Below are positions 1,201 to 25,323 of a DNA stretch of 35,418 nucleotides, piece by piece; the first letter of the stretch is position 1; the number at the start of each line of letters is the position of its first letter. The notes beneath the pieces were generated by a model. It saw only the letters and a list, made by a program, of their open reading frames with translations, searched no databases and had not been told where the DNA came from. This DNA comes from Methanoregulaceae archaeon (GTDB taxonomy: Archaea; Halobacteriota; Methanomicrobia; Methanomicrobiales; Methanospirillaceae), in the NCBI GenBank assembly GCA_035505975.1, contig DATJQJ010000021.1, forward strand, positions 1-35,418, read 5' to 3'. The position numbers and the translations under genes are program-made.

Positions 1201-1534
1201 TATTGGTATCGTTAACATTAATACGAAAATGCAGCATTGTTCCGGGAGTTTTTTCTCAATAAAATACATCTGCCTGGTTTTATGGATTCAGATGTGTTCA
1301 CCGGAATTATTGGTCTGAGTTCAATCAGGCAGGGATAATTGACGATGCAAAAAATGGGTACCTGTTTCCTTTTTTCACCAGGTACAGCAGGGATCAGGAA
1401 ACCCCCCCAATCATATTCCGTTAACCATTTACTTTTGTTAATCATTCTATGATCTATATGGGGCACAGGACCGACAGAATACGTCACAAATCGACGGTAT
1501 CCCGAAAATCCGGATATAACCTGGGAGATAAACA

Positions 1535-2392
1535 ATGATCGACATCGACACAATCGACTGGAACGAGGCCTGGAAGGAGGTTGATCGGCGCAAACGTGCC
1601 GATGACGCACTGGCCAACTGCACGGACCGCTGGAACGATCCGGAACGGTGCAGGAAGTTTAACCAGCGGATCCAGGACGAAAACTGGAAACATTCCTGGG
1701 ATCGGATCCATGCAATGCAGGTGACATCGGGATCGCGGGTCCTCGATATCGGCGCTGGTCCCGGAACACTTGCGGTCCCCCTCTCCGGGATCGTCAGGCA
1801 CGTCACTGCGGTCGAACCCTCCCCGGGGATGCTCGAATGCCTCCATGGTCATATTCAGGAGCGGCAGATCAGGAATATCACGACGGTTCAGAAAAAATGG
1901 GAGGACATAGACCCGGACAGCGACCTCAAGGCACCTTACGACGTGGTGGTCGCATCATACTCGCTCGGGGTCCCTGACCTCCGGGATGCCCTGGAGAAGA
2001 TCGATTTAGTCTCTTCGAAATATGCGTACATTTTCTGGTTTGCCGACATGATGTCGCCCCGTCTCCAGAATTACCTCGAAATATGGGAGGATCTCTTCGG
2101 GAAACCTCCTCTCCCGCGGTATTCCTCGAATATTATATTTAACCTTCTCACCCAGATGGGGATTTATGCGAATGTGGAGGTTACCCGGACGGATCATACC
2201 ACCCGATTTTCCAGCGTGGAGGATGCGGTGTCCAGCCAGCGTAACGAGTTGGATCTTAAGGATGACCGACAGGTGTCCGTGCTCAGGGCTTACCTCGAAA
2301 AAACCCTGATACACGACAACGGGGATTACATCCTGAAACGGCAGTCATACCAGGCAAAGATCTGGTGGGACAAGGAAATTCAGCCGGCCTGA
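1535..2392 (+). CDS. Class I SAM-dependent methyltransferase, paralogue 1 of a three-member lineage-specific family (MT1).
   Basis: Motif I 'VLDIGAGPGTLAVPL' is followed by 'VTAVEPSPGM'. Later motifs are 'KKWEDI', 'VVVASYSLGV' and 'YAYIFWF'. The C-terminus has 'QMGIYANVEV' and 'AKIWW'. The N-terminus is Trp-rich (WNEAWKE...WNDPE). The same motif order occurs in the ORFs at 8410 and 11635(-). Confidence 0.85.
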   Translation: MIDIDTIDWNEAWKEVDRRKRADDALANCTDRWNDPERCRKFNQRIQDENWKHSWDRIHAMQVTSGSRVLDIGAGPGTLAVPLSGIVRHVTAVEPSPGMLECLHGHIQERQIRNITTVQKKWEDIDPDSDLKAPYDVVVASYSLGVPDLRDALEKIDLVSSKYAYIFWFADMMSPRLQNYLEIWEDLFGKPPLPRYSSNIIFNLLTQMGIYANVEVTRTDHTTRFSSVEDAVSSQRNELDLKDDRQVSVLRAYLEKTLIHDNGDYILKRQSYQAKIWWDKEIQPA

Positions 2393-2408
2393 ACAGGAAT
2401 ATCATACC

Positions 2409-3323
2409 ATGCCTATCAATAACGTCTCACAAACCCTTCCCGGCTCGATCCTTGAAGAAACAGTTCAGCAGGTCAGGGACGAACTGGGCGCCGGTTTTGA
2501 CAGAATCCTCATCGAGCGGGTGGTAATCGGGATATTTTTCATCGGCGTCAAGCTCAGCGACGGTTCGGCAGGGATCTGCGCCACCCCGATCAAGGAGATC
2601 CCGGAAGCCGTCTGCTGCCCGAGCTCGGCACGTGCCATGCCCTACCCCGGAATGTTCAGAGGACGCAGGGCGGGGGATTTCCTCAGGGACCTGCCTTCCC
2701 AGCCGCCCCTGAAAAAGGCGATCGGGATCGCGATCCTTAACGCATTCTCGGCATCGATCATCAGGTCCCGGCTTACAACAGAGTATATCGTCGAAGTCGG
2801 CCCCGATGCCCTCGATCTGATTGAGTTCCCGGAGGATGCATACGTGGTAGTTGTGGGAGCACTTGTGCCGGTCCTGAAAAGGCTGGTTGCACGGGGAAAA
2901 ACATTCGGGATCCTTGAACTTGACAGGCGGACCCTGAAAGAGAACGAACTGCAGTTCTGGGTCCCACAGGAGAATTCCAGCGACGCGATCGTTAAGGCGG
3001 ATATGATCATCATAACTGGTACGACATTGTTGAACAACACCCTCGAACCTCTCCTGGGTCTTGCACACCCCGGTGCGAGGATAATTGTTGTCGGACCTAC
3101 GGCCGGCATGATTCCGGATGCATTCTTCCGGCGGGGTGTAACCATGCTCGGCGGGGATATTGTTACCAATGCCGACCTGCTGCTTGATACGCTTGCCGAG
3201 GGAGGATCGGGGTACCACTTTTTCGGGAAATCCGTAGAAAAGATCTGCATCACGCGGGTTGGAGCCCGGGAATTTATTAATGAGCATTTGCCTGCCAGCA
3301 CCGGAGGCAGGTCCTGCCTATAA
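2409..3323 (+). CDS. DUF4213/DUF364-type Rossmann-like protein (annotated in that family as 'putative heavy-metal chelation'), co-transcribed with MT1.
   Basis: It starts 17 nt after the MT1 stop. 'YVVVVGALVPVLKRLVARGKTFGILELD' and 'ADMIIITGTTLLNNTLEPLL...ARIIVVGPTAG' are typical of the DUF364 Rossmann-like C-domain. The N-terminal half resembles DUF4213. Confidence 0.55.
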   Translation: MPINNVSQTLPGSILEETVQQVRDELGAGFDRILIERVVIGIFFIGVKLSDGSAGICATPIKEIPEAVCCPSSARAMPYPGMFRGRRAGDFLRDLPSQPPLKKAIGIAILNAFSASIIRSRLTTEYIVEVGPDALDLIEFPEDAYVVVVGALVPVLKRLVARGKTFGILELDRRTLKENELQFWVPQENSSDAIVKADMIIITGTTLLNNTLEPLLGLAHPGARIIVVGPTAGMIPDAFFRRGVTMLGGDIVTNADLLLDTLAEGGSGYHFFGKSVEKICITRVGAREFINEHLPASTGGRSCL

Positions 3324-3546
3324 TTCAGTTGTAGTTGTCAGCCGGCTGTGCAAGGGTCTTTTCCGGGACCGGTACTTCCGGTCTTGGCCAGGGAGGTTCC
3401 GGCTGCCGGTATGATCATTTCTTTTGGGCCTTAACAATGATAATAACGGGAAATTCCCGTTCATCATCGGGTTCTTAATAAAACCCGGTTATATCAAACC
3501 CTGCCTTAACAAACAACGCAAAGATATCCTGCAGGGAACGGTGATA

Positions 3547-4135
3547 CTACAGTTGCATTACCGGCTGTCCCCATATTGCTTCTCCTTCATGGACAGCAGG
3601 AGTGAGGTATACTCCCTCCGGTTTGAGAAAACAGGGAGGGTGCATTGAAAAGACAAAAATTCCTCCATGTATGAGCAGATCGGCAATCGCTCTGAATAAC
3701 GTTCTGATATCTGCGATATCCATGGCCGCCATGTTTGCCACTGCCTTATCGAAGGGCCTCTCCCGTTTCAGCTCAAGGACCCGGCTATAGTCCGTGGCAT
3801 CATAGGTATGAAATGAAATGCTGCCTGAATAGGCGGCCCGCCGCCGCCTGGCATGGACAACCAGTTTTTCACAATATCAAACGCAACAACTCGTGCCTCC
3901 AATTCAGCAAGCCGCTGAGAAAAATTGCCGGTACCACACGCGGTATCAAGGACAAGGTCCCCTTTCTGGATTGCGAGCATCTCTTCGGTATGCGGACGGA
4001 CAACCCTGCTGTGAAACGAGTTGGATTCATCTCCCATCGGCATCCCGGTAATCGGCATTGGTATCCCAGCGGCGCCTGCTCTCATTGGTTGTCTCCCTGA
4101 AATCATCCATTATAATCCCTGCACCCATGATATCC
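3547..4135 (-). pseudogene. UbiE/Methyltransf_11-like SAM methyltransferase, disrupted by at least two frameshifts.
   Basis: Three overlapping minus-strand ORFs in different frames carry successive pieces of one methyltransferase. Frame a (4027..4365) has 'IMDDFRETTNESRRRWDTNADY'. Frame b (3768..4106) has 'EEMLAIQKGDLVLDTACGTGNFSQRLAE...AFDIVKN'. Frame c (hand-translated near 3850, then 3547..3741) has 'VVHARRRRAAY...YDATDY...FDKAVANMAAMDIADIRTLFRAIADLLIHGGIFVFS'. One frameshift lies in a GC run 'GGCGGCGGCGGGCCGCC' at about 3838-3856. Confidence 0.5.
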
Positions 4136-4396
4136 ACACCTGGATTGCGCTCTGCATTCCCCCGTTGTATTCTCCTGAAACAATATGTAATCCCGGACCT
4201 TAAACGCTGTATACCAGCCGGTTCCCCGAACTCGATCCCTTGCTTCCGGCATACTCTCCAGACCTGGGATGGTTTGGAGACAGGGAAACAGGTTATCAAT
4301 GATTTGAGGAGATTTTTCAGATGTTTTCCGTTCACAGTCCGTATCCACTGCCGGGCAATTGACATGCCGGCACACCTGAACGGGTCCTTCGAACAT
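4103..4396 (-). CDS. Hypothetical small Cys-containing protein. It could instead be the remnant N-terminal extension of the methyltransferase pseudogene.
   Basis: It has an ATG start at 4396, facing the AT-rich divergent promoter region. It contains 'CRHVNCPAVDTDC'. I recognise no family. It overlaps the start of the frameshifted methyltransferase. Confidence 0.2.
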   Translation of the reverse strand: MFEGPVQVCRHVNCPAVDTDCERKTSEKSPQIIDNLFPCLQTIPGLESMPEARDRVRGTGWYTAFKVRDYILFQENTTGECRAQSRCGYHGCRDYNG

Positions 4397-4551
4397 TGGC
4401 AGGACGAAAATGAGGAGTATTATGTAATTAGTTAATATTTTAAAAAAGTAAAATATAAAATATTACCAACAAAGGCAGCACTACTGCCCACTCGTCCCGA
4501 CAAGGGCTGGGGTGAGCGAAGTGCCAAATCCAGGAGAAGAGTGTATCGCGC
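4397..4551. promoter_or_regulatory. AT-rich divergent intergenic region with TATA-box-like elements. It would serve the radical SAM gene (+) and the 4396 ORF (-).
   Basis: 'TTAATATTTTAAAAAAGTAAAATATAAAATATTACC' at about 4431-4466 is strongly AT-rich in a GC-rich genome. 'AAATATAAAATATT' resembles an archaeal TATA box, and an AGGAG lies 16 nt before the ATG at 4552. Confidence 0.35.
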
Positions 4552-6252
4552 ATGGAATGCAGTTATTGTGAACGGGCCTGCGAGATCCCGGAAGAAACGA
4601 ACGGGCACTGCCGGATGTACCGCAACGAAAAGGGAAAGATCACGGAAAATTATCCGGATGCCTATCTCAATATCTACCCTGTTTCGAGCGAATCCATACC
4701 GATGCTTCATTTTTACCCGAACAGTATCTTCCTGCTCATCAGCACTATCGGGTGCAATTTTTCCTGTGAAGGCTGTATATCTGAATTCCAGACCACCCGG
4801 CCCGGCACGCTGCAGGAAGTCCTTACCCCCTACACACCGGAAGAGATCCTTGCCATTGCACGGGAAGGCGGGTGCAAGGGTATAACGTTCTGCCTGAATG
4901 AACCCACCGTCTCTCTTCCCACGTTCCTTAGGGTGGCGCAAGTGGCAAAGGGAGAAGGTCTCCTTGTCGGGTGCTCCAGTAATGGATATATGACTCCGGA
5001 AACCCTGCAGGCCATGATTCCGTACCTGGACTTTATCAATATCGGTCTTAAGGGATCAACCGACGGGCGATACAAGGAATGCGGGGCAAAATCGGCCGGC
5101 CCGGTCTACCGTAACGTAAAATCCCTGTACGATGCCGGCGTTGCCGTTGAAGTCTCTGTCATGTATATTAACGGGAGGGAATCAGAGGTGACAGGGGCAT
5201 CAGACCGCATCAGGAAAATATCACCGGCGATCCCGTTCCAGGTGATGCGATTTGTGGCGACCCATGAGAACCTCAAAGGATCCGAACCCGACAGGGAGCA
5301 GGGCGAACACCTCTGCACAGAACTGCGAAAATACCTTGATCACGTGTACCTGTTTAATACGCCGGCAACAACGGAACTCGACTCCCGGTGCCCGGTTTGC
5401 GGGGAAACCATTCTTCACCGGGTTTTTTTCGGGCCCATGGCAGCGAGGGTTCTCTCCTGCCGGACCGAAGGGATATGCAGTTGCGGGTACAGATTTCCCT
5501 GCCGGGGTGAGATAGAACCAATCCCAAAAACCGGCCCCCGTCTCCTCGGTGGATACAAGTCGGTTATGGGTGCCCGGTATATTGTGGATCTTCTCACATT
5601 TCTCGGGGTTAAGGATGACCTGGAGATCGACCGGATCTGCAATACAGTGATCGCCAGCGGTTATCTTCGCGAGCTCCAGGACAAGGAGGACTCGGTTGAG
5701 ACGTTCACCGGCATGCTCCGGTATATTGCGGGGCTTGCCCAGCGTGAAGAGGCAGCAGAACGGATCACAGACTACGTGCAGTCGGTTTTCAATGACATAG
5801 GAAACCGGGCAGCTGACGCAGAAAAACCCAGGGTCTATGTGGTCTTCTGCCACCCGCTTTTTCCGGTTTATGCAGCCAAGTTCGTGAACAGCCTTGTCGA
5901 GACGGCTGGAGGAACCAGCGTAAACAGGGAGCAGGACTTCAGGGAGAGTGCAGATGCAGAATATTCCGTTCAAGCACTCAACCAACTCGACCCGGAGGTT
6001 ATTCTCGTCACAGGCCCTTCTGTTCCGTCTCTCGGTGAATTCCTTGATACATGCAAAGAACTGGGAATAACCTGCAGAGGAATCTCTGAACACAGGGTAT
6101 ATCTCACGGAAGGCATGCACGCGACGGGATCTCTTGGATGGATCATCAGTCTCATGGATGTCGCAAACATCCTGCATCCTGAGATCTTCCATTATTCCCT
6201 CGCTGAAGAAAAAGAGAAACTTGATAGGGCAGTGACCAGGTTTATGGGATAA
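4552..6252 (+). CDS. Radical SAM enzyme (COG1180 / PflA-like, AmmeMemoRadiSam-type core) with a Cys-rich linker and a C-terminal BtuF/FepB-like periplasmic-binding-protein (PBP) fold domain. No signal peptide.
   Basis: The N-terminus 'CSYCERAC...GHC' and 'PMLHFYPNSIFLLISTIGCNFSCEGCIS' match the COG1180 pattern (CxxC..C..GxC, then the CxxxCxxC cluster at aa 68-75). The linker 'CPVCGETILH...SCRTEGICSCGYRFPC' has six Cys. The C-terminal ~230 aa ('PRVYVVFCHPLFPVYAAKFVNSLVETAGGTSV', 'LNQLDPEVILVTGPS', '...ANILHPEIF') look like a type-III PBP. Confidence 0.8.
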   Translation: MECSYCERACEIPEETNGHCRMYRNEKGKITENYPDAYLNIYPVSSESIPMLHFYPNSIFLLISTIGCNFSCEGCISEFQTTRPGTLQEVLTPYTPEEILAIAREGGCKGITFCLNEPTVSLPTFLRVAQVAKGEGLLVGCSSNGYMTPETLQAMIPYLDFINIGLKGSTDGRYKECGAKSAGPVYRNVKSLYDAGVAVEVSVMYINGRESEVTGASDRIRKISPAIPFQVMRFVATHENLKGSEPDREQGEHLCTELRKYLDHVYLFNTPATTELDSRCPVCGETILHRVFFGPMAARVLSCRTEGICSCGYRFPCRGEIEPIPKTGPRLLGGYKSVMGARYIVDLLTFLGVKDDLEIDRICNTVIASGYLRELQDKEDSVETFTGMLRYIAGLAQREEAAERITDYVQSVFNDIGNRAADAEKPRVYVVFCHPLFPVYAAKFVNSLVETAGGTSVNREQDFRESADAEYSVQALNQLDPEVILVTGPSVPSLGEFLDTCKELGITCRGISEHRVYLTEGMHATGSLGWIISLMDVANILHPEIFHYSLAEEKEKLDRAVTRFMG

Positions 6253-6515
6253 GATTCTGTGACCAATTTACCCCTAATGGTAATCCCGATTAAATTCAGG
6301 ACGTCTTGCATATGCCACAATAATACCGGCAAGCCGGCGATTGGCATTATATGATGCAATAAACAATAATTATTGGTTAAAAAAGGTAACTAATATAAAT
6401 TTATTTACATGCAATGTTAACCAATTCTTAAGGATCCCCCGTGATACCGGGGAACTACCGTATATCCATCAAATATATCAAAGGATTGACGTAACTAATC
6501 AAAGAAGGAGGAAAA

Positions 6516-8360
6516 ATGGATTTCTTTACTCTGTTGTTGTCGGTCATACTCGTAATAATCGTTTTATGGCTGATACTGAAGGGATTGGTCCTGATTCATG
6601 CAAATGAAGTAGGCGTCGTCACCAGGAAGATGTTCGGACCCACGCTGCCTCAGGGCAAGATCATCGCGACCAAAGGAGAGGTCGGCGTTCAGGCCGATAT
6701 CCTGATGCCCGGGCTCTATTTCTATATTCCGATCCTATGGAGAGTTGACCGTGAGAGCGTCACTAAGATAACACCAGACCACATTGGCATCGTCTCCTCC
6801 ATTGACGGCCTGCCTATGAAGCCTGGTCGGTTGCTTGCTGATGAAGTGCAGAGCAACTCGTTCCAGGACGCAGGTATGTTTCTTGAGAACGGCGGGTTTA
6901 AAGGTCCGCAGATTGCAATCCTAAAGCCCGGGACCTATCGTATCAATACCCGTCTCTTTGCTGTCATCGAGAAACCGATTATCGCAGTACCACAGGGGAA
7001 AGTAGGGATCGTCACCGCTCTTGACGGTATCCCGCTTCCATCACGGTTTGCCATTGCTCCCGCACCCCTCGAAGATCACAGTCATTTCCAGAACGGGCAG
7101 GTATTCATCGTGAGCCAGGGGTACCGCGGTACTCAGCTCGAGACGTTGCAACCCGGGGATTACTATATCAACCCGCTCCTGTTTGAAGTTACACCGGTCG
7201 ATATGACCATCGTCCCGCCCGGTAATGTCGCAGTAATCATATCAAGTGTCGGGGAAGAACTTGAAAAATCCCCTGATCGAGCCCCTAAAATATCGAATCC
7301 TCCCAATCTCGACCAGCCCGTGCATGAAGATGCCGAGAAGCTCCTGATCACCGATAAGACAAAAAGAGGAATACTCAGGGATCCTGTTGCACCCGGTAAG
7401 TACAACCTGAATACGGCCGCATACAGGGCAGAAATTGTGCCAACCAGTGCCGTTACGATCGACTGGGCAAGCGAGGACGGGACAAAAGAGACCCTAAAGT
7501 ACGTCAAGGAAAACAAGGACAATAACCCGAACGTAGCGGAATTCTTTAAGTTCGGACAACTACGGGTCACCTCCCAGGACGGGTTCCAGCTCGAGGTGGA
7601 TGTACGACTTATCGTCCGGATCCCGGCGGACGACGCTCCGTTCGTCATCGCCCGGTTCGGGAGCGTCTACAACCTGATCGAACAGGTAGCACACCCGTTG
7701 ATCGATGCATCATTCAGGAACGAGGCCGGGAATCAGCAGGCGTTACAGTTCGTCCACGACCGGACGAAACTGCAACAGACAGCATTCGAGAGGGCGCAGG
7801 AAGAGTTCGAGAAATACCACGTCGAAGTCCAGGGACTCCTGATTGCCTATATTAAGGTCGACGAAGCCTTGTTGAAGACGCAGACCCTGAAACAGATTGC
7901 CGTCCAGCAGCAGCAGCAGTACCAGCAGGAGGCGAAGGCGCAGGAGGAACGGATCGCCGTCACCGAGAAGACAGCCCGGGCCGATATGCAGGGGCAGGTC
8001 ATCGCCGCAAAATTATCGATCGACATCAACAAAGACAATGCACAGGCTGCCCGTGAATCTGCATACGGCACTCGTGACGCAACAAAAGCGAATGCAGACG
8101 GATCTGCGTATGCGAACGAGCAGATCGGTATCGGCACCGCCAAGGCATATATCGCGCAGAAAGAGGCCCTTGGTGCTGAAAACGTAGCGATGCTGCAGGC
8201 AATCCAGAAGATCGCGGACGGGAAGATCGTTATCACCCCGAATGTACTTGTGACGGGAGAGGGTTCGCAGGGAGGTAATCTCCTGACTGCATATTTTGCT
8301 ACATTACTCGAACAGACCAAACGGCAGGCTACGGCAATCTCGCAGAAAACCCCGGAATAA
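6516..8360 (+). CDS. Flotillin-like SPFH (band 7) domain protein with an N-terminal transmembrane anchor and a Gln/Ala-rich coiled-coil tail.
   Basis: GGAGG lies 5 nt upstream of the ATG. The N-terminal transmembrane helix is 'FFTLLLSVILVIIVLWLILKGLVLI'. A long SPFH-like region is followed by a 'QQQQQYQQEAKAQEERIAVTEKTARADMQGQ' coiled coil typical of flotillin/FloT-YqiK proteins. Confidence 0.8.
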   Translation: MDFFTLLLSVILVIIVLWLILKGLVLIHANEVGVVTRKMFGPTLPQGKIIATKGEVGVQADILMPGLYFYIPILWRVDRESVTKITPDHIGIVSSIDGLPMKPGRLLADEVQSNSFQDAGMFLENGGFKGPQIAILKPGTYRINTRLFAVIEKPIIAVPQGKVGIVTALDGIPLPSRFAIAPAPLEDHSHFQNGQVFIVSQGYRGTQLETLQPGDYYINPLLFEVTPVDMTIVPPGNVAVIISSVGEELEKSPDRAPKISNPPNLDQPVHEDAEKLLITDKTKRGILRDPVAPGKYNLNTAAYRAEIVPTSAVTIDWASEDGTKETLKYVKENKDNNPNVAEFFKFGQLRVTSQDGFQLEVDVRLIVRIPADDAPFVIARFGSVYNLIEQVAHPLIDASFRNEAGNQQALQFVHDRTKLQQTAFERAQEEFEKYHVEVQGLLIAYIKVDEALLKTQTLKQIAVQQQQQYQQEAKAQEERIAVTEKTARADMQGQVIAAKLSIDINKDNAQAARESAYGTRDATKANADGSAYANEQIGIGTAKAYIAQKEALGAENVAMLQAIQKIADGKIVITPNVLVTGEGSQGGNLLTAYFATLLEQTKRQATAISQKTPE

Positions 8361-8409: not shown

Positions 8410-9351
8410 ATGAACCCCACAACTCCAATAATTACTTCAGGATCAGATATTTCCGGATTCTCCAGCCTCCCGGGTACGTTCTGGCGAGAACGATGGAAAG
8501 AGCAGCGGCTTGCCCTGCTCGAAACCCGGAAATCCGAAGGTACAAGTTTCTGGAACGATAAAAAATCTGTAAAAAATCATTTTATCCGGGATCTTGACGA
8601 ATGGAGGGACCATGCCGAAGCCCGGATTGCAGGCATGCAGATCAGGGACGGCTCGCGTGTGCTGGATATCGGCGCAGGTACCGGCACCTTAAGTGTCCCT
8701 CTCGCGGCACACGGGTGCGATGTGACCGCTGTCGAACCGTCGCCGGCGATGGGTGAAATACTAAAGGAATACCAGCAGGAACAAAAGGCCCGGGAAATTA
8801 CCGTGATCCCAAAACGGTGGGAAGATGTCACACTCGAGGAACTGGGGGAACCGTTCGATGCCGTCATCGCTTCCTATAGCCTCATGGTCACCGATATTGG
8901 CGAGGCAGTTGCAAAGATGCATCGTTCCTGCAGGGGAACCGCCCATATTTTCTGGTTCCTGACCCAGCCGTTATGGGCCCAGGTCAATGCCGGCGTCTGG
9001 AAGGAGTTGTACGGAACGGAATTCTGCGGCGAACCGACCGCCGATATCCTGTGGTCGGCACTGTATGAAATGGGGATCTACGCAAATCTTTTAGTTGAAC
9101 CCGGTTGCGATCCGATGATATATCCATTAGTTGAAGATGCCGTGAAGGAGTTTCACGGTCGCATGAACTGCACGACTGATGGGCAGGACGCGATACTCAG
9201 GGACTATTTCACGAGGACCCTTGCAAAGTCCGATAAAGGATATTACGTGAACGGGCAGGCGCTCGGGGCCCATATATGGTGGAATGCCGGTGAGCAGCAG
9301 GGATTCAAGTTCAACGATACATCCGTGGAGTCTACGATAGTCACCGAGTGA
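8410..9351 (+). CDS. Class I SAM-dependent methyltransferase, paralogue 2 (MT2).
   Basis: It shows 'VLDIGAGTGTLSVPL...VTAVEPSPAM', 'KRWEDV', 'AVIASYSLMV', 'TAHIFWF', 'EMGIYANLLVE' and 'AHIWW'. The ATG at 8410 (Met39 of track ORF 8296..9351) lies 50 nt after the flotillin stop and aligns with the N-termini of MT1 and MT3. Confidence 0.85.
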   Translation: MNPTTPIITSGSDISGFSSLPGTFWRERWKEQRLALLETRKSEGTSFWNDKKSVKNHFIRDLDEWRDHAEARIAGMQIRDGSRVLDIGAGTGTLSVPLAAHGCDVTAVEPSPAMGEILKEYQQEQKAREITVIPKRWEDVTLEELGEPFDAVIASYSLMVTDIGEAVAKMHRSCRGTAHIFWFLTQPLWAQVNAGVWKELYGTEFCGEPTADILWSALYEMGIYANLLVEPGCDPMIYPLVEDAVKEFHGRMNCTTDGQDAILRDYFTRTLAKSDKGYYVNGQALGAHIWWNAGEQQGFKFNDTSVESTIVTE

Positions 9352-10245
9352 TTCTTTCAACAAGCTGGCTATCATTTTGAGATCTTTACGGGATACTTTC
9401 TTCAATACAGCCCTGATGAGATGGACGTGGCACATTTGCCGGGAGGAACCATGGAATGAGCGTTCTACGGCTTTCCGGATACCTTTGTGACCATCTGAAA
9501 CAACCATATTGACATCGCGAAGCCCGCGATCTTTCAGGCCTTGAACAGGTCCTCCCAGGTTAGCTCATCCTCACAATCTGCGATCCTGGCACCAAGAATC
9601 TCTCATATTCCATCTTCCCGAACTCCGGCACTTACAAGCAGAGCTGTGTTAGAATACTTTATTCCATCCCTTATTTTGAAATATGACACATTTAAAAAAG
9701 AGATAAGGAATGTGAGATTCAATAGGTCTGGAGAGAAATTCAATAACCTTAGAATCCAGTTCTTTAGCAACGCTGGAAACAAATAAGGCTGATATCTTCT
9801 CAATACCGAGATGCGAGATTACATCCTCAATCTTCCTCGTTGAGATTCCCTGTAGGTACGATTCAATGATGGCATTCTCAAGTGCCTTTTCGATCCGTGA
9901 GTATCTTTCAAAAATCCGTGTCTTGAAGGAGATATCCCGCAATAATGGGTTTCAAGGTTTAATGGGCCATATCGCGATTTCAGAGTACGGCATCTGGTAT
10001 CATTGCGATACTTCCGTCTTGTCCCGGTCCTTTCATATTTAGCTGCCCCGACCTGTTCCAAGGCTTCTTTCTGCATCACCTCGTTCAAAAACCAGGTGAT
10101 CAGATTCTTCATTCCATCTTCATTATCGGTAAGGTAATGTGCTACCAGGTCTTTACTATTCATGCCCTGTTCCTTCCTTTTTCTGCAATCTAAGGTGGAT
10201 ACAGGGCGTCTTCAATTTTACAGCTTTATACGCACACTACCTTCA
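9336..10245 (-). mobile_element. IS256-family (Mutator-type) transposase remnant: at least two frameshifts, and the 3' end is truncated at the MT2 stop codon.
   Basis: Three minus-strand ORFs in different frames match successive segments of an IS256 transposase. 10163..9819 carries 'LNEVMQKEALEQVGAAKYERTGTRRKYRNDTRCRTLKSRYGPLNLE'. 9942..9649 carries 'FERYSRIEKALENAIIESYLQGISTRKIEDVISHLGIEKISALFVSSVAKELD...YLFFKCVIF'. 9507..~9336 carries 'VVSDGHKGIRKAVERSF...CHVHLIRAVLKKVSRKD'. Roughly 110 C-terminal aa are missing. Confidence 0.75.
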
Positions 10246-10269
10246 AAAAAAAAAAAAAAAAAAAAAAAA
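10245..10269. repeat. Homopolymeric poly(A) tract, about 25 nt.
   Basis: Read directly: 'cttc' + A(25) + 'tttgacatc'. It is flanked by ~250 nt of very AT-rich sequence at the upstream boundary of the IS remnant. Confidence 0.9.
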
Positions 10270-10434
10270 TTTGACATCTATATTATCAATTATTATTGTT
10301 TAATTTTTTCAATTATCAACTGAAAGTAATATATTCAATGAGATCATAATTATGTGTGCACCTTCGGAATCACACCTTCCGGAGTGCTCATGAATCGGCA
10401 AAAGTCAACATAGGAAGTTATTCATAAAGCATTT

Positions 10435-10530
10435 TTCAAACCAGGGACATTCTCTGGTTTGAATTTATCATTAGCCGAATTTGCACAAATATTATATAGC
10501 CTGATTACTCATTAGCGGTTGGTGAAAACA
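10435..10530 (+). promoter_or_regulatory. Putative promoter and operator of the mop gene: a perfect 10-bp inverted repeat upstream of a TATA-like box.
   Basis: The inverted repeat is TTCAAACCAG-N9-CTGGTTTGAA at about 10435-10463. 'AAATATTATATA' lies at about 10488-10499, ~32 nt upstream of the ATG at 10531. GGTGA lies 5-9 nt before the ATG. Confidence 0.3.
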
Positions 10531-10740
10531 ATGGAGATTAGTGCACGAAACAAGATCAAGGGAACCGTCAAGATGATCAAGAAAGGTCCGGTCAGCACGG
10601 AGGTAGTCATTACCATAGCGGGCGGGAATGAGATCGTCTCATCCATAACGACCTACTCGGCAGAGAAAATGAAATTGAAGGAGGGTTCGCCCGTGTATGC
10701 GGTGATGAAGGCCTCCGAGGTAATGGTCGGGATTGACTGA
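10531..10740 (+). CDS. mop: Mop/TOBE-domain molybdate- or tungstate-binding protein (molbindin).
   Basis: At 69 aa, 'MEISARNKIKGTVKMIKKGPVSTEVVITIAGGNEIVSSITTYSAEKMKLKEGSPVYAVMKASEVMV' matches the mono-Mop TOBE pattern (SARN.L.G.V.....G....V.......I.S.IT..S...L.L..G..V.A.IKA..VM). Confidence 0.8.
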   Translation: MEISARNKIKGTVKMIKKGPVSTEVVITIAGGNEIVSSITTYSAEKMKLKEGSPVYAVMKASEVMVGID

Positions 10741-10776: not shown

Positions 10777-11061
10777 TCAGAACCGTGTCGTCAGCAGGGC
10801 CTCGAGGTATTCAAGGGGATATGACCCGGCTTCGGGATCGTACCATACCTCGACTTCAGGGTCATTGACAATGAAATGGATCTCAAGGATCCCGAATTTA
10901 TGGATAATATTAATCAGGCCCGATTCGGTCTCCCTGACATACAGGTCCTGGTCGCCCAGAAACGCCTTGATATCGTCGTCCGTAACAGGGCGGGAAAGAC
11001 GATATATCCGGCGTTTCCAGCCGGGATACGGTGAAACCGGGTTTCGGAACAGGGTGTTCAT
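10777..11061 (-). CDS. Hypothetical protein, 13 nt downstream of the FmdE-like gene on the same strand.
   Basis: It has an ATG at 11061 (Met8 of the track ORF). Its acidic C-terminal half is 'EIHFIVNDPEVEVWYDPEAGSYPLEYLEALL'. I recognise no family. Its operon position supports it being real. Confidence 0.4.
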   Translation of the reverse strand: MNTLFRNPVSPYPGWKRRIYRLSRPVTDDDIKAFLGDQDLYVRETESGLINIIHKFGILEIHFIVNDPEVEVWYDPEAGSYPLEYLEALLTTRF

Positions 11062-11074
11062 AATCCAGATAATG

Positions 11075-11638
11075 TTACACACTCACAATCTTATAATACG
11101 AACCATTTGCACAATTTTTACACTTCACACTACCCTCCCTGCTGACTTCACGATGATCGAGAATCTGTTCACCGCAGACACTGCAAATTTCCTTATGCAG
11201 GGGAAAACCGGGAATATCATCCTCCGATAGATCGACCGTCACATTTTCAATTTTGAGTATTTCGTCCTCGGGTATACCAGACAGGAGGGCCAAAACTTCA
11301 CTCCTGTCCAGTTTATCGTGCTCCTCACGGTTTTTCTCATGGATCGATACCCGTACTGCCTTCCGTGTTTCCAAATCCAAAAATGTAGCGGCAAATTTCC
11401 CGTAATCCCTGAACTTGAGGGTTCTGTGGCCAAGCGAGCACCCGGTAATTGCCTGAACAGCATCCGTCCCGCAGCGATCGATTTCAAGATATACGACAAG
11501 GTTGTTGTTGTGGACATGTGGGTTCATTCCCAGTTCCCGGAGGCCTGCAATTGTCATCCGGGTCCCAAGAACGATCCCCGGACAGACATGCCCATGGAAT
11601 TCCCTTGCCTTATTAAAGAGAACACTATAATCGCTCAT
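11075..11638 (-). CDS. FmdE-family protein (formylmethanofuran dehydrogenase subunit E-like domain) with a C-terminal zinc-ribbon.
   Basis: It carries the FmdE signature 'FHGHVCPGIVLGTRM'. The C-terminus 'CSVCGEQI...CKNC' is a CxxC...CxxC ribbon. Its ATG at 11638 overlaps the stop of MT3 (ATGA). Confidence 0.8.
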   Translation of the reverse strand: MSDYSVLFNKAREFHGHVCPGIVLGTRMTIAGLRELGMNPHVHNNNLVVYLEIDRCGTDAVQAITGCSLGHRTLKFRDYGKFAATFLDLETRKAVRVSIHEKNREEHDKLDRSEVLALLSGIPEDEILKIENVTVDLSEDDIPGFPLHKEICSVCGEQILDHREVSREGSVKCKNCANGSYYKIVSV

Positions 11639-12504
11639 TCCTGGTTCACCCCCGGAATCCCCTGATGTTTCGTTGTCCACCAGATATGTGCCCCGAGGAC
11701 TTCATCTCCAAGCACCAGCCCGTCACCCTCCTGTCTCAACATCGCATGGAGGTAATTTTTCACCGTTGTTTCCTGCAGAGGAGTAGTGCAGTTCAAACGC
11801 TGGATATACTCAGACATGGCATCATCGAACGTAGGGTAGAATGTGCGTGAGGATTTGGTTTCCACCTCAAGGTTTGCATAAATTCCCATCTCGATGAGCA
11901 CCTGCCAGAGCCAGTCAGCCAGGGGTTCTCCCGGGAACTCCCCGCCATGCAGCAGGGGCCATAAATCCATGTTCACCTTCGCCCAAGTCGGTGGAGTAAG
12001 GAACCAGAATAGGTGTATGCTCCCCCTGCAAAAGGTCTCCATCTTCGCTATCGCCTCTGCGATGTCCATCATGGTCAACGAGTAGGACGCTATAACGGTA
12101 TCATAGTGCTCGTCCCCCAGTTCTTCCGGTTTCACGTCCTCCCATCGTTTTGGAATTACGGTAATACCAGCGATATTTTCCTTCGCTATCCGTTCATTAA
12201 GCGCCTCCCTCATCACGGGTGAAGGTTCAACTACTGTAACCTGACATCCTTTCAGTGCAAGCGGGATTGCGAATGTCCCTGGTCCTGCACCGATGTCGAG
12301 GACAAGGGAATGTTCCGGAACATCCATCGTATCAAGACGCGCCTCCCACTGGTGCCGGTTATTCTCTCTTCCCTTCATGAAAACATTCTGGACATGTTTT
12401 TTATTGTTCCAGAACTCTTTTGAATTGCCATAGTTTGGGACGGCACAATGGGCGAGTTTCAGTTGCCGCCATTGTTCCCGCCACGATCCCGCTGTGGGTC
12501 TCAT
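11635..12504 (-). CDS. Class I SAM-dependent methyltransferase, paralogue 3 (MT3).
   Basis: It shows 'VLDIGAGPGTFAIPL...VTVVEPSPVM', 'KRWEDV', 'TVIASYSLTM', 'SIHLFWF', 'EMGIYANLEVE' and 'AHIWW'. The ATG at 12504 is preceded by a very AT-rich promoter region at 12505-12700. Confidence 0.85.
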   Translation of the reverse strand: MRPTAGSWREQWRQLKLAHCAVPNYGNSKEFWNNKKHVQNVFMKGRENNRHQWEARLDTMDVPEHSLVLDIGAGPGTFAIPLALKGCQVTVVEPSPVMREALNERIAKENIAGITVIPKRWEDVKPEELGDEHYDTVIASYSLTMMDIAEAIAKMETFCRGSIHLFWFLTPPTWAKVNMDLWPLLHGGEFPGEPLADWLWQVLIEMGIYANLEVETKSSRTFYPTFDDAMSEYIQRLNCTTPLQETTVKNYLHAMLRQEGDGLVLGDEVLGAHIWWTTKHQGIPGVNQE

Positions 12505-12706
12505 GAAATAATCAATTCTCCTTTTTCGGGCATTTTATAATAATTCCCATAATTGTTCATTAATTTATGTTTATTTTTTCAGAGAATTAATAATTATTAA
12601 AAATACAGATTATCTTGGGCACCGGCAACCACCTGGTGATAAGACTTACCTTTGTCGGGTCGATTAATCTCGTCAGAAAATTTAACGAATTTTCCACATA
12701 CAAGGA

Positions 12707-12934
12707 GTGAATAGGAAAATGAACATGGTTTGGGACAAAAAAAAAAGTCATGGTATCCGCCGTCTCGGGTACGACATGGGTACCCATACAATGACGATCG
12801 AATTCACCGGGAAACCAAGAATATCACATTCGCCGGTACCGTACGCTGTATATGAATCGATCAATAACTCCACATTCCCCGAGAAACTCTACCGGAGAAT
12901 TATCCTTGGAAAAATTCCGATAGTTGCCCGTTAG
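12707..12934 (+). CDS. KTSC-domain protein.
   Basis: 'IRRLGYDMGTHTMTIEFTGKPRISHSPVPYAVYESINNS' fits the KTSC pattern (S..i..igYD.....L.veF.sG..Y.Y..VP..vy..l). The start is ambiguous between 12707, 12719 and 12725. Confidence 0.55.
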   Translation: MNRKMNMVWDKKKSHGIRRLGYDMGTHTMTIEFTGKPRISHSPVPYAVYESINNSTFPEKLYRRIILGKIPIVAR

Positions 12935-13007
12935 ATTGTGAAATATACCGATAAACGGGCCGGTTCTCACCGTCAGATCCATCCCGGCCTGTTTATTTTT
13001 CGCACCA

Positions 13008-13727
13008 GTGATTCAGGACAAACACTTCATCGAAACGAGCAATACCGTGATAATCCGAAACCATGTTAGTCTGGCATTGGGTAGCGTGCTTATCTTGTAT
13101 TTTCCGCTGATCGCGACAGACCCTGAAATTTTGATTGCGATCGCGGCAGGTACATTTGTCGGGGTGGTCCTTCCGGATATTCATATAAAAAACCACTCCG
13201 GGATAAAGAACTCTTTTTTCCATGGTTTATCGTTCTGATATTCAAAAAAACATTATTACAGCGGTATCTCTGGATATACCGGAAATTATCTTTCAGCAAC
13301 TTTGGAACCGAAGATAAACGACTGACACTCGTTGCCCGGCCTGTTTTTCATCGCGCTGGTATCAGGTTGTCTTGTCTGTCTTACGATCTGGGTATTTCCC
13401 TTCAGCCAGGGAACGTATCCCCTGGAAATTTTGCTTTCCGGGATCGTCATCGGTTTCATCCAGCATTTCATCGAGGACAGTTGCACAAAAAAAGGTGTAA
13501 TGCCCCTCTTTCCACGTAACGACAAATTTCGGATATCGGGGAGCATCAGGCCTTGCGAAAGAAGCGATCGCCGTATCCTCTATTTCCATGCCTATCTCAT
13601 TGGTACCGTTGTGCTTCTGTTCCTGCTCTATTATACCGGGGCGTGCCCCGGCTACCTCGAATGGCCGGTGAGCATCGTGGCCCTGGCGATCTGCATCATC
13701 GCAATGATGTATCCGATGTCAGGATAA
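13008..13727 (+). pseudogene. DUF457/YdjM-like membrane-bound metal-dependent hydrolase, interrupted by in-frame stop codons.
   Basis: Two ORFs share one frame. 13008..13238 carries 'VLPDIHIKNHSG'. 13332..13727 carries 'HSLPGLFF...IGFIQHFIEDSCTKKGVMPLFP'. Together these give the DUF457 order LPDIDH...THSL...H..D..T..G.P..WP. In-frame TGA stops sit at about 13236 and 13326. The second piece has only a TTG start. Confidence 0.4.
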
Positions 13728-14372
13728 CCAGGAGCGCGGGTCGTTTCGGTTCGTGATGCCTTATCTCAAACAGATGCAGCCAGGTCGGGATGAAAACGTT
13801 CAGCATTTTTCTTTTTCGTAAGCCAGACCAGCTCCCTGTCCGAAAAACCAAATGCTTTCGTGGTGAGAATCCTGATACCGTCCGGGGCGCACGATACGTC
13901 TGAGGTTTGGGGAACGAGCATGTACCGGGTGATTTTTTATGGTTCCCTGATTGTGCCGAGATTAGGCCGGCAATGCAACGGTCGGACGGTTTTTGATCAT
14001 AGGAAACCGCTACTATCGCCGATTGCTGTTGACCGTGATCTCCGCGTGTAACCCTGAAAATAAGGTTGCCCCATGTATCCTTGCTGGGACTTTCCATTTT
14101 CCACCCATCGAACCGGTAAATCCGGCGGACAGGGTTTCCGGATGAGGGAATTTCTCGCTGATGATTTAACCTGCCTGATGAAGGATATCCTGATTTCCGG
14201 GACTTATATCGAATTTTCAGCTGGCAGGCTTTGATGACCTGGTACCTCGTACTAACCTGAAACGATAAACTGTTCAAAACCCATTACGAGTAATTTTAAG
14301 ATTATGGAGTGTTCTGAAATTCTTCTCCGGGAAATAACATCGGAGATTCAAAAAGGAAAAATATCAGCCCGC

Positions 14373-22619: not shown

Positions 22620-23120
22620 TTATAAATTCCTGATAAGCGATGGCAGTACGTCGTCAAGCTTTGCTTTTATCGGCATCGGGTTATGGACCGCATTGATGGC
22701 AATTTTTTCTGCAGGGAACCCGATTAAATTGCTGATTTCCGTGTAATGCTCCCCGAAGATGATCACGACCATGGCGGCCGAGGAAAGAGCCTGAATAGTT
22801 GCCGCGTACGTGACTCCCGCGTCGTTATGGATGAATGCGAAACAGTACCTGAAGTCACGCTTCTTCTCTGCCAGTTCTGCGATACAGCGGTCGATATCGA
22901 TTACTTCCCCGATATAATGCCGGTCAGGATCGGACACTTCGATGTTCGTCCTCGCCGCCCGGTTGCCGGCCACCACAGATATTACCCCGAGCTTGCGCAG
23001 TTTGTTGATCAGGTACAACGCAGAACCCGTCTGGACCGGGACCTGAGGGCAGCCGAGAAGGACCAGGGCTGCAGGGTTCCCGCTAATACGTGTATCTGTC
23101 ACTTCGTTCACTCCTGACAT
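22620..23120 (-). CDS. Conserved hypothetical protein, possibly the methanogen DUF1890 family.
   Basis: A 166-aa ORF with 'ALVLLGCPQVPVQTGSALYLINKLRKLGV'. The family name is recalled from memory only. Confidence 0.45.
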   Translation of the reverse strand: MSGVNEVTDTRISGNPAALVLLGCPQVPVQTGSALYLINKLRKLGVISVVAGNRAARTNIEVSDPDRHYIGEVIDIDRCIAELAEKKRDFRYCFAFIHNDAGVTYAATIQALSSAAMVVIIFGEHYTEISNLIGFPAEKIAINAVHNPMPIKAKLDDVLPSLIRNL

Positions 23121-23194
23121 TGGTAACGGTTTCCTGTTATTTCAAAGGTTGTATGATCCCCGATCGCCGGCATTGGAATACCCCGGGCCGGATC

Positions 23195-23548
23195 TCAGGG
23201 GGGGCCGGTCCTTGTCTCCTCCTCGATCCATGCAAGGTAGGGTGGAAAACCCCCGATAACCGGGAGCACGATCATCTCCGGCAGTTCGTAGGTATGGAGT
23301 TCCCGGATTTTATTCAGGACTGCTGTTTTTCTCGATTCCATCGTCTTGATGACCATGAGGACTTCGACGTCATCTGAAAATGTTCCCTGCCAGTAGTAAA
23401 ACGACCTGACCTCCATCATGTTCACGCACGCGACCATGTGGTCGTCGAGAAGTGTCCGGGCGATGACCACGGCATTCTCACGGGACGCTGTGGACAATAG
23501 CACGATCGGGTTGTTTACCGTTTCCTTCATCCCTGCCATAGGATTCAT
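23195..23548 (-). CDS. cutA: Divalent-cation tolerance protein CutA.
   Basis: 'IVLLSTASRENAVVIARTLLDDHMVACVNMMEVRSFYYWQGTFSDDVEVLMVIKTMESRKTAVLNKIRELHTYELPEMIVLPVIGG' matches CutA1 end to end. Confidence 0.8.
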   Translation of the reverse strand: MNPMAGMKETVNNPIVLLSTASRENAVVIARTLLDDHMVACVNMMEVRSFYYWQGTFSDDVEVLMVIKTMESRKTAVLNKIRELHTYELPEMIVLPVIGGFPPYLAWIEEETRTGPP

Positions 23549-23678
23549 TCTGGGAGTCCCGGGTTATCAACTTCACGCCGGTAAGACGATGGTGTTGATG
23601 ATGATTCGGGATCCGGCCGCGGACAGGATTTTCCGGATCCCCGGGGAATGAGTGCTGACGGCTTTCCTGACAACGACT

Positions 23679-24175: not shown

Positions 24176-24307
24176 GGTTTTCCTTATGGAATTTTATTTT
24201 TTTCCGGATTGGCAGTTGTATTTTGGTGCCTTTTGCATTATTTTCGGTATCCCGTGTATCGTAAGATTGGCGAACTTGGTTTTCTGTTCCCAAAACAGAG
24301 AAATGCT

Positions 24308-25237: not shown

Positions 25238-25323
25238 TTACATCATCGTTACCGGTTCAATGGGGGGTTATCTGATATGAAATGCGCATACGAAGGCCCC
25301 GGTCCGGGATTAATTTTATTCTC

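Follow-up and report, generated by a model that had tools for sequence, protein, structure and literature searches.

The 35,418-nt stretch of Methanoregulaceae DNA analysed here (the window) carries an operon in which a class I methyltransferase (MT) gene, MT3, is followed by the gene for an FmdE-like protein and by that for a small acidic protein, small94 (Table 1), and the pairing of MT and FmdE genes recurs in related genomes. We see an even chance that MT3–FmdE–small94 is a molybdenum/tungsten (Mo/W)-trafficking adaptor operon with SAM-dependent enzymes as partners, forming one arm of a Methanoregulaceae Mo/W island. A literature search returned nothing on the MT–FmdE pair, CpaM, methanogen metallophores, or TrmO with molybdenum.

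Table 1. Features of the MT3–FmdE–small94 operon and its surroundings, in window coordinates
Feature	Position	Strand	Remarks
MT1, paralogous class I methyltransferase	1535..2392	+	Pfam; 32% identical to MT3
DUF4213/DUF364 protein	2409..3323	+	304 aa; PF04016 2.5e-42, PF13938 3.3e-17
Radical SAM enzyme + C-terminal Peripla_BP_2 (BtuF/FhuD/IsdE-like) fusion	4552..6252	+	566 aa
MT2, paralogous class I methyltransferase	8410..9351	+	Pfam; 48% identical to MT3
Mop/molbindin, single TOBE domain, convergent	10519..10740	+	TIGR00638 79.4 bits vs cutoff 55
small94, conserved acidic protein	11061..10777	-	94 aa, pI 4.87; gene 3 of operon
FmdE-like protein + C-terminal treble-clef/DksA-TraR-type zinc finger	11638..11075	-	187 aa
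ATGA, MT3 stop/FmdE start	11635..11638	-	Sequence reading; overlap unconserved
MT3, class I SAM-dependent methyltransferase	12504..11635	-	289 aa; gene 1 of operon
YdjM-family membrane protein gene	12942..13724	+	Conserved neighbour, here split into two frames

The plus-strand letters 'tcat' at 11635-11638 read ATGA on the minus strand, a 4-nt overlap of the MT3 stop with the FmdE start, as an earlier note had described. An SD-like GGTGA lies within MT3, 9-13 nt 5' of the FmdE start, and the ATG matches the N-termini of 12 homologues in the alignment. The small94 gene starts 13 nt past the FmdE stop, and its own stop is separated by 36 nt from that of the convergent Mop gene; the neighbours listed previously (a SAM methyltransferase, an acidic ORF, a convergent mop) all lie where they had been placed. 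A database record is identical to small94 across its 94 aa, while small94 has no NCBIfam match; no Rfam RNA family was found in the whole window. Four-nt ATGA overlaps are a frequent type of junction in operons. Among relatives the distance between FmdE and MT genes ranges from -8 to +77 nt, with a 7-nt gap in the closest relative, and ATGA is present at the FmdE start in most of them because the protein starts Met-Ser. The same-strand adjacency of MT and FmdE exceeds chance; the overlap does not. Being specific to the window, the overlap is therefore weak evidence of a complex, and the earlier reading that it implies coupled translation and probably a complex is not supported by this comparison; as proof of obligatory coupling we reject it on the same grounds.

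The FmdE-like protein matches PF02663 over residues 14-110 (114.5 bits, gathering score 22.9) and PF01258 zf-dksA/traR (31.2 bits, cutoff 24.9), and has no NCBIfam match. The HGHVCPG motif and C-terminal CxxC...CxxC previously pointed out are both present, the latter as C152xxC155...C173xxC176, and these four zinc-finger cysteines are invariant in 13 homologues, as are H15, H17, C19 and C56, which align with the Zn/Ni ligands His15/His17/Cys19/Cys55 of PDB 2glz and 2gvi. The solved PF02663 proteins Ta1109 (2gvi), DSY1837 (2glz) and SYN_00638 (3d00) have the same alpha+beta core, His-x-His-x-Cys … Cys ligands and C-terminal CxxC…CxxC treble-clef finger, and are likewise encoded outside fmd operons, close to metal-transport genes (PMC2954224), although profile E-values between the window protein and their PDB chains are only 1e-6 to 1e-9 and, unlike here, a methyltransferase partner is described for none of the three. 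In FmdE structures a His2Cys2 Zn/Ni site is exposed to solvent within a cleft of 30 x 10 Å, and the Cys carries a ligand of unassigned identity; the crystals contained Zn and Ni, neither Mo nor W.

That structural work assigned no function, the paper proposing transcriptional regulation or metal sensing. A role as sensor, in which the FmdE zinc-finger protein would detect a metal and control neighbouring genes with no part in catalysis, would accord with its DksA/TraR-type finger and with the fusion of FmdE relatives to a LysR-type HTH (P0346, P0358, P0470) and, in Methanosaeta, to a transcriptional regulator (PMC11237513). We nonetheless consider it improbable: an added HTH would be superfluous on an FmdE that itself bound DNA, most fusions are with enzymes or scaffolds (MobB, TrmO, DUF364), the gene sits mid-operon with enzyme genes on either side, and treble-clef fingers of the FmdE type resemble protein-interaction modules.

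Among the Pfam-scanned ORFs, those of the 35 kb window and of a further 8.5 kb to its left, none encodes a Fwd/Fmd subunit, in agreement with the earlier observation that dehydrogenase subunits are missing nearby, and since fwd/fmd genes are absent around FmdE across about 20 kb to the left and 24 kb to the right, we reject its identity as a relocated fwdE. The accompanying premise, that FmdE-family proteins normally accompany Fmd/Fwd, is wrong: in a 2010 survey only 13 of 208 PF02663 genes adjoined fmd genes and most neighboured metal transporters (PMC2954224), so that a location away from fmd operons has since then been the known norm for FmdE genes. The proposed decoupling from Fwd/Fmd thus holds in so far as the gene is no displaced piece of a fwd operon, but the Mop and ModABC neighbours and the fusions of relatives to MobB, MobA-like and MoaB-like domains argue that its function probably remains tied to the Mo/W biology of Fmd/Fwd, with Mop as more than an incidental neighbour. 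The status of FmdE as an orphan 'subunit' dates from the 1990s. Canonical fmdE belongs to a Mo-regulated fmdECB operon, and FmdE, while encoded in fmd operons, is yet unobserved in the solved enzyme complex (PMC11237513). The canonical proteins of Methanothermobacter and Methanococcus are of the same Pfam family as the window FmdE and are linked with a Mo enzyme and with expression that responds to Mo; unlike them, the window FmdE is encoded away from fmd/fwd catalytic genes, its operon partners being a SAM methyltransferase and a small protein specific to the lineage. In M. maripaludis the locus tag of fmdE (MMP_RS02690) adjoins modA of a modA-modB-DUF364-modC operon, fmdE is the sole fmd gene raised under N2-fixing sulfidic conditions, and the DUF364 gene of the operon (MMP_RS02675) is cofit with nifH. 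There, a SAM-enzyme-like gene lies inside Mo uptake with fmdE next door, analogous to the ModA>TrmO_N>ModB>ModC and FmdE>DUF364 arrangements of the loci studied here, although the operon as published is without MT3-type paralogues, small94 or Mop.

We surveyed loci with two peptide patterns that mostly sample one methanogen family, and the loci are therefore not independent. Of 43 species-level loci, 23 have an MT3-type gene as the immediate same-strand upstream neighbour of FmdE, and in 33 a class I MT is found no more than two genes away from FmdE. The adjacency is kept at 59-87% FmdE identity amid rearranged flanks. Of the recurrent adjacency or fusion that the earlier note had envisaged, the first is borne out by these counts and the second is not, there being no class I MT–FmdE fusion among the best 150 of 2319 family representatives. 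Membership of PF02663 and the concentration of the survey on one family would fit a relocated canonical FwdE/FmdE, or an adjacency inherited by shared ancestry without functional meaning. Both are by now largely refuted and seem to us very unlikely, given the missing fwd/fmd genes, the survival of the pairing while Mop switches side, MT4 and small94 are variably present and flanks differ, and the independent SAM-enzyme pairings and domain fusions of other lineages.

The operon stands in an island of recurrent order, MT1–DUF364–radical SAM/PBP fusion–MT2 … MT3–FmdE–(MT4)–small ORF–Mop, next to which relatives carry ModABC, TrmO-like genes and chelate importers. In the window, MT1 lies 17 nt upstream of the DUF364 gene, whose product has no NCBIfam match. 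The radical SAM fusion (PF04055 at residues 63-207, PF01497 at 380-489) scores 94 bits against TIGR04337, under the cutoff of 220, and a PDB sequence search with it was without matches; homologues occur at loci L011, L018-L024, L043 and L050, and an MT2-type gene recurs downstream of them at L019-L024. The YdjM gene, in segments 12942-13235 and 13326-13724 by local phmmer (Pfam YdjM, 26.6 bits), belongs to a family found at 8 loci and adjoining the module at L050. The Mop gene (PF03459, 66 bits, cutoff 22.3, 3e-18) has counterparts flanking the module in 21 of the 43 loci, at times on both sides, and next to it also at L001, L004 and L050. DUF364 is directly downstream of FmdE at six loci, with the order FmdE>DUF364>MT207 in four Methanobacterium loci, and in Methanospirillum (L031, L032, L035, L038) an MT1-type gene is convergent to FmdE. 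Locus L043 reads MT207>rSAM>FmdE>ModA>ModB>ModC>TrmO on one strand, its transporter scoring 70-110 bits for modA (cutoff 62.5) and 250 for Mo_ABC_porter (cutoff 210), and the bacterial locus L045, also on one strand, reads FmdE>HTH_1>TauE>MoCF_biosynth (403 aa)>MoaA, an operon that joins FmdE with MoaA and a molybdopterin-binding-domain gene. In the cultured M. palustris E1-9c (CP001338.1, about 1.634-1.637 Mb) the module MT>FmdE>MT>small>Mop is flanked by a FecCD/PBP2 importer operon carrying an rSAM-PBP and an MT, and by a ModA>TrmO_N>ModB>ModC operon.

FmdE paralogues occur in FecCD/PBP2-type and Opp/Nik-type importer operons, and the family may therefore serve several metals. One reading is that an imported Ni/Co/Fe chelate, corrinoid or SAM-derived metallophore is processed here, FmdE taking the metal and the MTs modifying the organic ligand; we hold this to be unlikely, if still worth serious consideration. 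It would account for the Peripla_BP_2 proteins of 16 loci, the FecCD permeases of 7 and the ABC ATPases of 17, for the BtuF/IsdE-like domain on the radical SAM enzyme, and for an FmdE paralogue that closes an Opp/Nik-type operon at L025. A similar Opp/Nik-type operon is found 8 kb beyond the left end of the window; the 213-aa gene after it was tested and is no FmdE paralogue. The Zn and Ni of the FmdE crystals would also fit, as would the only characterised DUF364 enzyme, which cyclises a SAM derivative, and the best NCBIfam match of the MTs, the corrinoid protein-associated methyltransferase CpaM. However, the CpaM scores lie at 41-52 bits (MT3 40.6, MT2 51.6, MT1 45.3) against a cutoff of 180 (NF043040), Mop and ModABC recur closer to the MT3–FmdE unit than other neighbours do, and the fusion partners of FmdE are overwhelmingly Moco proteins, with no corrinoid, Ni or Fe protein among them.

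These fusions were scored in the best 150 of the 2319 family representatives, where MobB is joined to FmdE in 11 of 27 fusion proteins, in both domain orders, and further partners are MobA-like NTP_transf_3, MoCF_biosynth (MoaB-like) with a LysR-type HTH, and HIT; TrmO_N–FmdE fusions number three, and FmdE–DUF364 occurs once (P0345). Aligned along its full length, the window protein shares 44% identity with the fused FmdE domains. Together with published fusions of FmdE to tRNA-methyltransferase domains (PMC11237513), the TrmO_N–FmdE and FmdE–DUF364 proteins independently support the idea that FmdE and SAM enzymes are linked in function. In the TrmO_N fusions FmdE is joined, as here, to a SAM-binding methyltransferase-type domain, although TrmO_N is a Pfam family distinct from the class I domains of MT3 and resides in the same protein, whereas the partner at the window locus is a separate gene. 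The MobB, MobA-like and MoaB-like fusions also invite comparison with scaffolds and chaperones of late-stage Moco/Wco maturation (MobB with MoeA/MobA; FdhD). The tungstate insertase MoeA1 has MobB as its scaffold, and an extended cleft with reactive Cys is a further point of resemblance; FmdE is, however, unrelated to MobB and FdhD in sequence and fold, and any cofactor binding by it is putative.

MT3 scores above threshold for class I SAM-MT Pfam families (e.g. Methyltransf_25, 43 bits, cutoff 27) and has the glycine-rich loop of motif I, the acidic residue after beta-2 and the fold of class I (Rossmann-fold) enzymes. The predicted structure matches generic small-molecule MTs only, and a PDB sequence search with MT3 gave marginal generic matches alone. 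We consider MT3 most probably a small-molecule methyltransferase, with a ligand or intermediate bound or delivered by FmdE as its acceptor. ArsM enzymes bind their substrate through conserved cysteines, and we rejected an ArsM-like MT on finding no invariant Cys in 53 MT family members; against TehB HMMs the MTs score 17-24 bits, with cutoffs of 218-303. Every metalloid-MT score falls far under its cutoff, ars, ter and selenium genes are absent nearby, and to our knowledge such chemistry is without precedent for Mo/W. We accordingly think it quite improbable that FmdE Cys/His residues hold As, Se, Te or thiomolybdate/thiotungstate for methylation by the Cys-free MT, whether for detoxification or for Mo/W release. 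Nor do we know of any Mo/W cofactor synthesis step with a class I methyltransferase.

From the demonstrated gene content, conserved adjacency, domain fusions, metal ligands and MT fold, we infer a Mo/W role for FmdE, physical contact of the MT with FmdE as its partner, and the kind of molecule that accepts the methyl group, as follows. MT3, FmdE and small94 would be co-transcribed, with the Mop gene flanking, within a conserved Methanoregulaceae island that would acquire molybdenum/tungsten and feed pterin-cofactor assembly. The FmdE-like protein may be a dimeric adaptor or chaperone with its exposed His2Cys2 metal site in the long cleft and a zinc finger serving protein contacts; it would link ModABC and Mop, which take up and store the oxyanions, to MoaB/MoeA and MobA/MobB, which act late in the Moco/Wco pathway. 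Membership of the two-domain PF02663 type would also imply an intertwined homodimer whose cleft lies between the subunits. It would cooperate with class I MTs, DUF364, TrmO-like proteins and the radical SAM–binding-domain fusion; MT3 would methylate what FmdE binds or passes on, and small94 is a probable accessory subunit. The earlier suggestion, in which the MT would receive a metal-bound substrate from FmdE, may hold. The case for a Mo/W role of FmdE draws on gene context, fusions and literature, and a direct link of FmdE to Mo, W or Moco is putative. As to the chemistry, FmdE Cys/His might hold thiomolybdate or thiotungstate while the MTs S-methylate and strip sulfido ligands, or the MT, DUF364 and radical SAM enzymes might build a methylated pterin or Mo/W-binding ligand; we offer this as speculation with little probability attached.

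For methanogens of sulfidic, Mo/W-poor habitats, either version would amount to a hitherto unrecognised SAM-dependent Mo/W chemistry, and, if true, would add an enzymatic layer to Mo/W cofactor biology and give FmdE a function. CO2-reducing methanogenesis, at its first step, and wetland nitrogen fixation are both limited by the supply of Mo and W, and accessory factors for acquiring these metals are therefore relevant to methane emission and to growing methanogens in culture. The close FmdE subfamily appears in three consistent settings, namely SAM-enzyme operons, Moco-assembly fusions and Mop/ModABC neighbourhoods, and the conservation of the MT–FmdE operon in peat methanogens offers a testable role for the long-unexplained FmdE family. 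The cultured Methanosphaerula palustris carries the module, so that the FmdE question is open to experiment there; the methyltransferase link, if real, would be chemistry new to Mo/W metabolism.

Three closely spaced genes on the minus strand of the window encode MT3, a class I SAM-methyltransferase (MT), an FmdE-like protein and small94, an acidic ORF product with no family match in Pfam or NCBIfam; a gene for Mop, a single-TOBE molbindin, converges on them. The start sites are predictions. The MT3 stop (TGA) and FmdE start (ATG) overlap as ATGA, seen as 'tcat' on the plus strand at 11635-11638, and the FmdE start is preceded, at a distance of 9-13 nt, by an SD-like GGTGA. Genes, overlap and Mop are thus as the earlier note described them. 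The spacer between MT3 and a divergent KTSC-domain ORF is AT-rich, spans 200 nt and presumably carries both promoters.

Features of the window and of related loci (L0xx, loci of surveyed relatives; L048, the window's own contig in contig numbering; L050, Methanosphaerula palustris E1-9c, CP001338.1)
Locus	Feature	Position	Strand	Remarks
Window	MT1	1535-2392		32% identity to MT3
Window	DUF4213/DUF364 gene	2409-3323		directly after MT1
Window	Two short gene calls	about 3768-4365	-	between DUF364 and radical SAM genes
Window	Radical SAM protein	4552-6252	+	566 aa; C-terminal third Peripla_BP_2 (BtuF/FhuD/IsdE-like)
Window	MT2	8410-9351		48% identity to MT3
Window	Transposase fragments	9127-10163	-	mutator family (IS256-like), several frames; between MT2 and Mop
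Window	Run of ~25 A	about 10240-10275		beside transposase fragments
Window	Mop/TOBE gene	10519..10740	+	TIGR00638, 79 bits vs 55
Window	small94	11061..10777	-	94 aa, pI 4.87
Window	FmdE-like gene	11638..11075	-	187 aa; PF02663 (FmdE), 114.5 bits, and PF01258 (DksA/TraR zinc finger)
Window	MT3	12504..11635	-	289 aa; above threshold for five class I SAM-methyltransferase Pfam families
Window	KTSC-domain ORF	12707-12934	+	75 aa, 26.6 bits vs 25
Window	YdjM-family gene	12942-13724	+	split over two reading frames
Window	137-aa-family gene	13699-14283	-	split over two reading frames
Window	DUF1890, CutA1 (divalent ion tolerance), metallo-beta-lactamase-fold, DUF2284 ('predicted metal-binding protein')	22620-25962	-	little characterised, some metal-related
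L050	Radical SAM–Peripla_BP_2 fusion	2909-4678		
L043	Radical SAM–Peripla_BP_2 fusion	6166-7926		
L050	TrmO_N gene	13049-13549		in Mod operon
L043	TrmO_N gene	11648-12184		in Mod operon
L038	TrmO_N gene	3203-3745		in Mod operon
L025	Divergent FmdE paralogue	11548-12336		closes Opp/Nik-type operon
L015	Divergent FmdE paralogue			closes Opp/Nik-type operon
L048	Opp/Nik-type ABC operon	1238-6577		just left of the window; without the FmdE paralogue
L048	Two short gene calls	12228-12825	-	the window pair listed above, in contig numbering

That no dehydrogenase subunits lie nearby is also correct: when the other large ORFs of the window were scanned with Pfam, no Fwd/Fmd subunit was detected, and on the 85-kb Methanoregulaceae MAG contig the 8.5 kb to its left are taken up by an ABC operon of the Opp/Nik type, pilin genes and a YdjM gene alone. 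The premise that FmdE normally accompanies formylmethanofuran dehydrogenase is not, because of 208 genes in PF02663 only 13 have fmd neighbours, most lying beside metal-ion transporter genes instead (PMC2954224); an FmdE gene outside a fwd/fmd operon is therefore the rule rather than an anomaly.

An alignment of 13 FmdE homologues, searched against one genome per GTDB species, recovered 43 loci from Methanoregula/Methanoregulaceae, Methanospirillum, Methanobacterium and one Thermodesulfovibrionia bacterium, annotated by local phmmer; the survey rested on two peptide patterns and mainly covers related methanogens, so that its counts are of non-independent events. The recurrent methyltransferase adjacency for which the earlier note proposed a survey is found, with a class I MT within two genes of FmdE in 33/43 loci and a same-strand MT3-type gene directly preceding it in 23. 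A further paralogue, MT4, follows FmdE in nine of the 43, small94 follows FmdE or MT4 in ten, and Mop flanks the unit in 21, in varying orientation and at times on both sides. Four Methanospirillum loci have an MT1-type gene convergent with FmdE, and in Methanobacterium (4 loci) the operon is FmdE>DUF364>MT207, MT207 being a shorter, unrelated class I MT. The inference of translational coupling from the overlap fared less well: the overlap is present in the window but is not conserved in relatives, where MT3 and FmdE are separated by anything between -8 and +77 nt, the closest relative (87% identity) having a 7-nt gap, and ATGA at the FmdE start is almost universal solely because the protein begins Met-Ser. 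The conserved feature is thus operonic adjacency, not overlap. A relocated subunit, or synteny without meaning, is very improbable and largely refuted. Genes of the YdjM family and of an unnamed 137-aa family are conserved neighbours of the module elsewhere (the latter in 7 loci); their split copies in the window may be pseudogenes or assembly frameshifts.

Residues H15, H17, C19 and C56 and four zinc-finger cysteines are invariant among the 13 FmdE homologues, and the conserved ligands of the window protein correspond to Zn/Ni ligands of PDB 2glz and 2gvi, in which a 30 x 10 Å cleft between subunits leaves the metal site open to solvent and the ligand Cys bears an unidentified ligand (PMC2954224). 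Among 1.84 billion cluster representatives a profile search identified 2319 relatives, of which the best 150 were inspected, with fusion partners identified by Pfam and local searches. Among these 150, 27 have at least 270 aa with extra domains: MobB in 11 (both orders occur, implying that fusion took place independently); TrmO_N and a LysR-type HTH in three each; DUF4213/DUF364, MobA-like NTP_transf_3, MoCF_biosynth and HIT once each; and a tandem FmdE. The same 150 include no class I MT–FmdE fusion. Fused FmdE domains match the window protein at 44% identity over its full length, zinc finger included. The sole bacterial locus reads FmdE>HTH_1>TauE>MoCF_biosynth (403 aa)>MoaA on one strand. 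A regulator or sensor, as the zinc finger and HTH fusions might suggest, seems improbable for a protein whose relatives are also fused to enzymes and whose gene sits in mid-operon. Zn/Ni in FmdE-family crystals and PBP2, FecCD and Opp neighbours would suit chelate or corrinoid processing, but the fusions are Moco-specific, and we consider this possible though unlikely. A divergent paralogue with FHTYAAPG in place of His-x-His-x-Cys, resembling the Syntrophus 3d00 type, closes Opp/Nik-type ABC importer operons in relatives; the operon just left of the window lacks it.

In the literature, canonical fmdECB is under molybdate regulation. The M. maripaludis fmdE adjoins modA of a modA-modB-DUF364-modC operon (placed by locus tags) whose DUF364 gene is cofit with nifH; fmdE is the only fmd gene raised under N2-fixing sulfidic conditions, where molybdate becomes thiomolybdate. 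MobB is a scaffold with the tungstate insertase MoeA1. Taken with the bacterial locus and the literature, the fusions connect this FmdE subfamily with Mo/W uptake and the late steps of cofactor assembly.

The operon belongs to a larger island. Three MT paralogues are encoded in the window, and the set MT1–DUF364–rSAM–MT2 … MT3–FmdE–(MT4)–small94–Mop is found again, all on one strand and within ~10 kb, in three relatives (L020, L023, L024; rSAM, radical SAM); the window copy is broken up by a Band 7 gene and the transposase fragments, which with the adjoining A run look like a degenerate insertion sequence that has split the conserved island. In cultured M. palustris E1-9c the MT>FmdE>MT>small>Mop module sits between two operons, FecCD/ATPase/MT217/rSAM-PBP/PBP2 (MT217, a small class I MT; rSAM-PBP, the Peripla_BP_2 fusion) and ModA>TrmO_N>ModB>ModC(TOBE). 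Methanospirillum L043 has MT207>rSAM-PBP>FmdE>ModA>ModB>ModC>TrmO, all on one strand, its transporter genes exceeding NCBIfam cutoffs for modA and Mo_ABC_porter and its ATPase being WtpC-like. The rSAM–Peripla_BP_2 fusion recurs beside a small class I MT, both where the importer operon is of FecCD type and where it is of ModABC type; its radical SAM part is AmmeMemoRadiSam-like, below cutoff, its Peripla_BP_2 part is cytoplasmic and of ligand-binding type, and a PDB sequence search returned no relatives. TrmO_N, nominally a tRNA methyltransferase domain, is encoded within ModA–ModB–ModC operons for molybdate/tungstate transport or as their last gene. One of the two short minus-strand genes has a weak Methyltransf_31 match and may thus be what is left of an additional methyltransferase gene.

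SAM is used by all four of the families class I MT, DUF364, TrmO_N and radical SAM, so that SAM chemistry abounds in the island, beside Mo/W genes. The first characterised DUF364 enzyme takes a SAM derivative as substrate and co-occurs with radical SAM methylases. Across 53 members of the MT family many Trp residues are invariant, which would suit an aromatic pocket that takes a planar or cationic ligand, and no Cys or His is, which argues against an ArsM-like mechanism; methylation of a metalloid or thiolated oxyanion we hold to be quite improbable. CpaM, the best NCBIfam match of the MT, falls far under cutoff. All 89 small94 homologues are from Methanoregula or Methanosphaerula; with a predicted structure (pLDDT 82) having only nonspecific neighbours, small94 is probably a lineage-specific accessory subunit.

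The protein families of the module are already known, and FmdE has been reported outside fmd operons, near metal transporters (PMC2954224) and fused to a 'tRNA methyltransferase domain' (PMC11237513). In the literature searched we found no description of a conserved MT–FmdE–small ORF–Mop operon, of its placement inside a SAM-enzyme-rich Mo/W island, or of the pattern of fusions to MobB, MobA-like and MoaB-like domains as a clue to function. From sequence comparison we give about even credence to FmdE being a Mo/W-trafficking adaptor, which would link Mo/W uptake and storage to cofactor assembly and would cooperate with SAM-dependent enzymes, with MT3 methylating a small ligand or intermediate that FmdE would hold.
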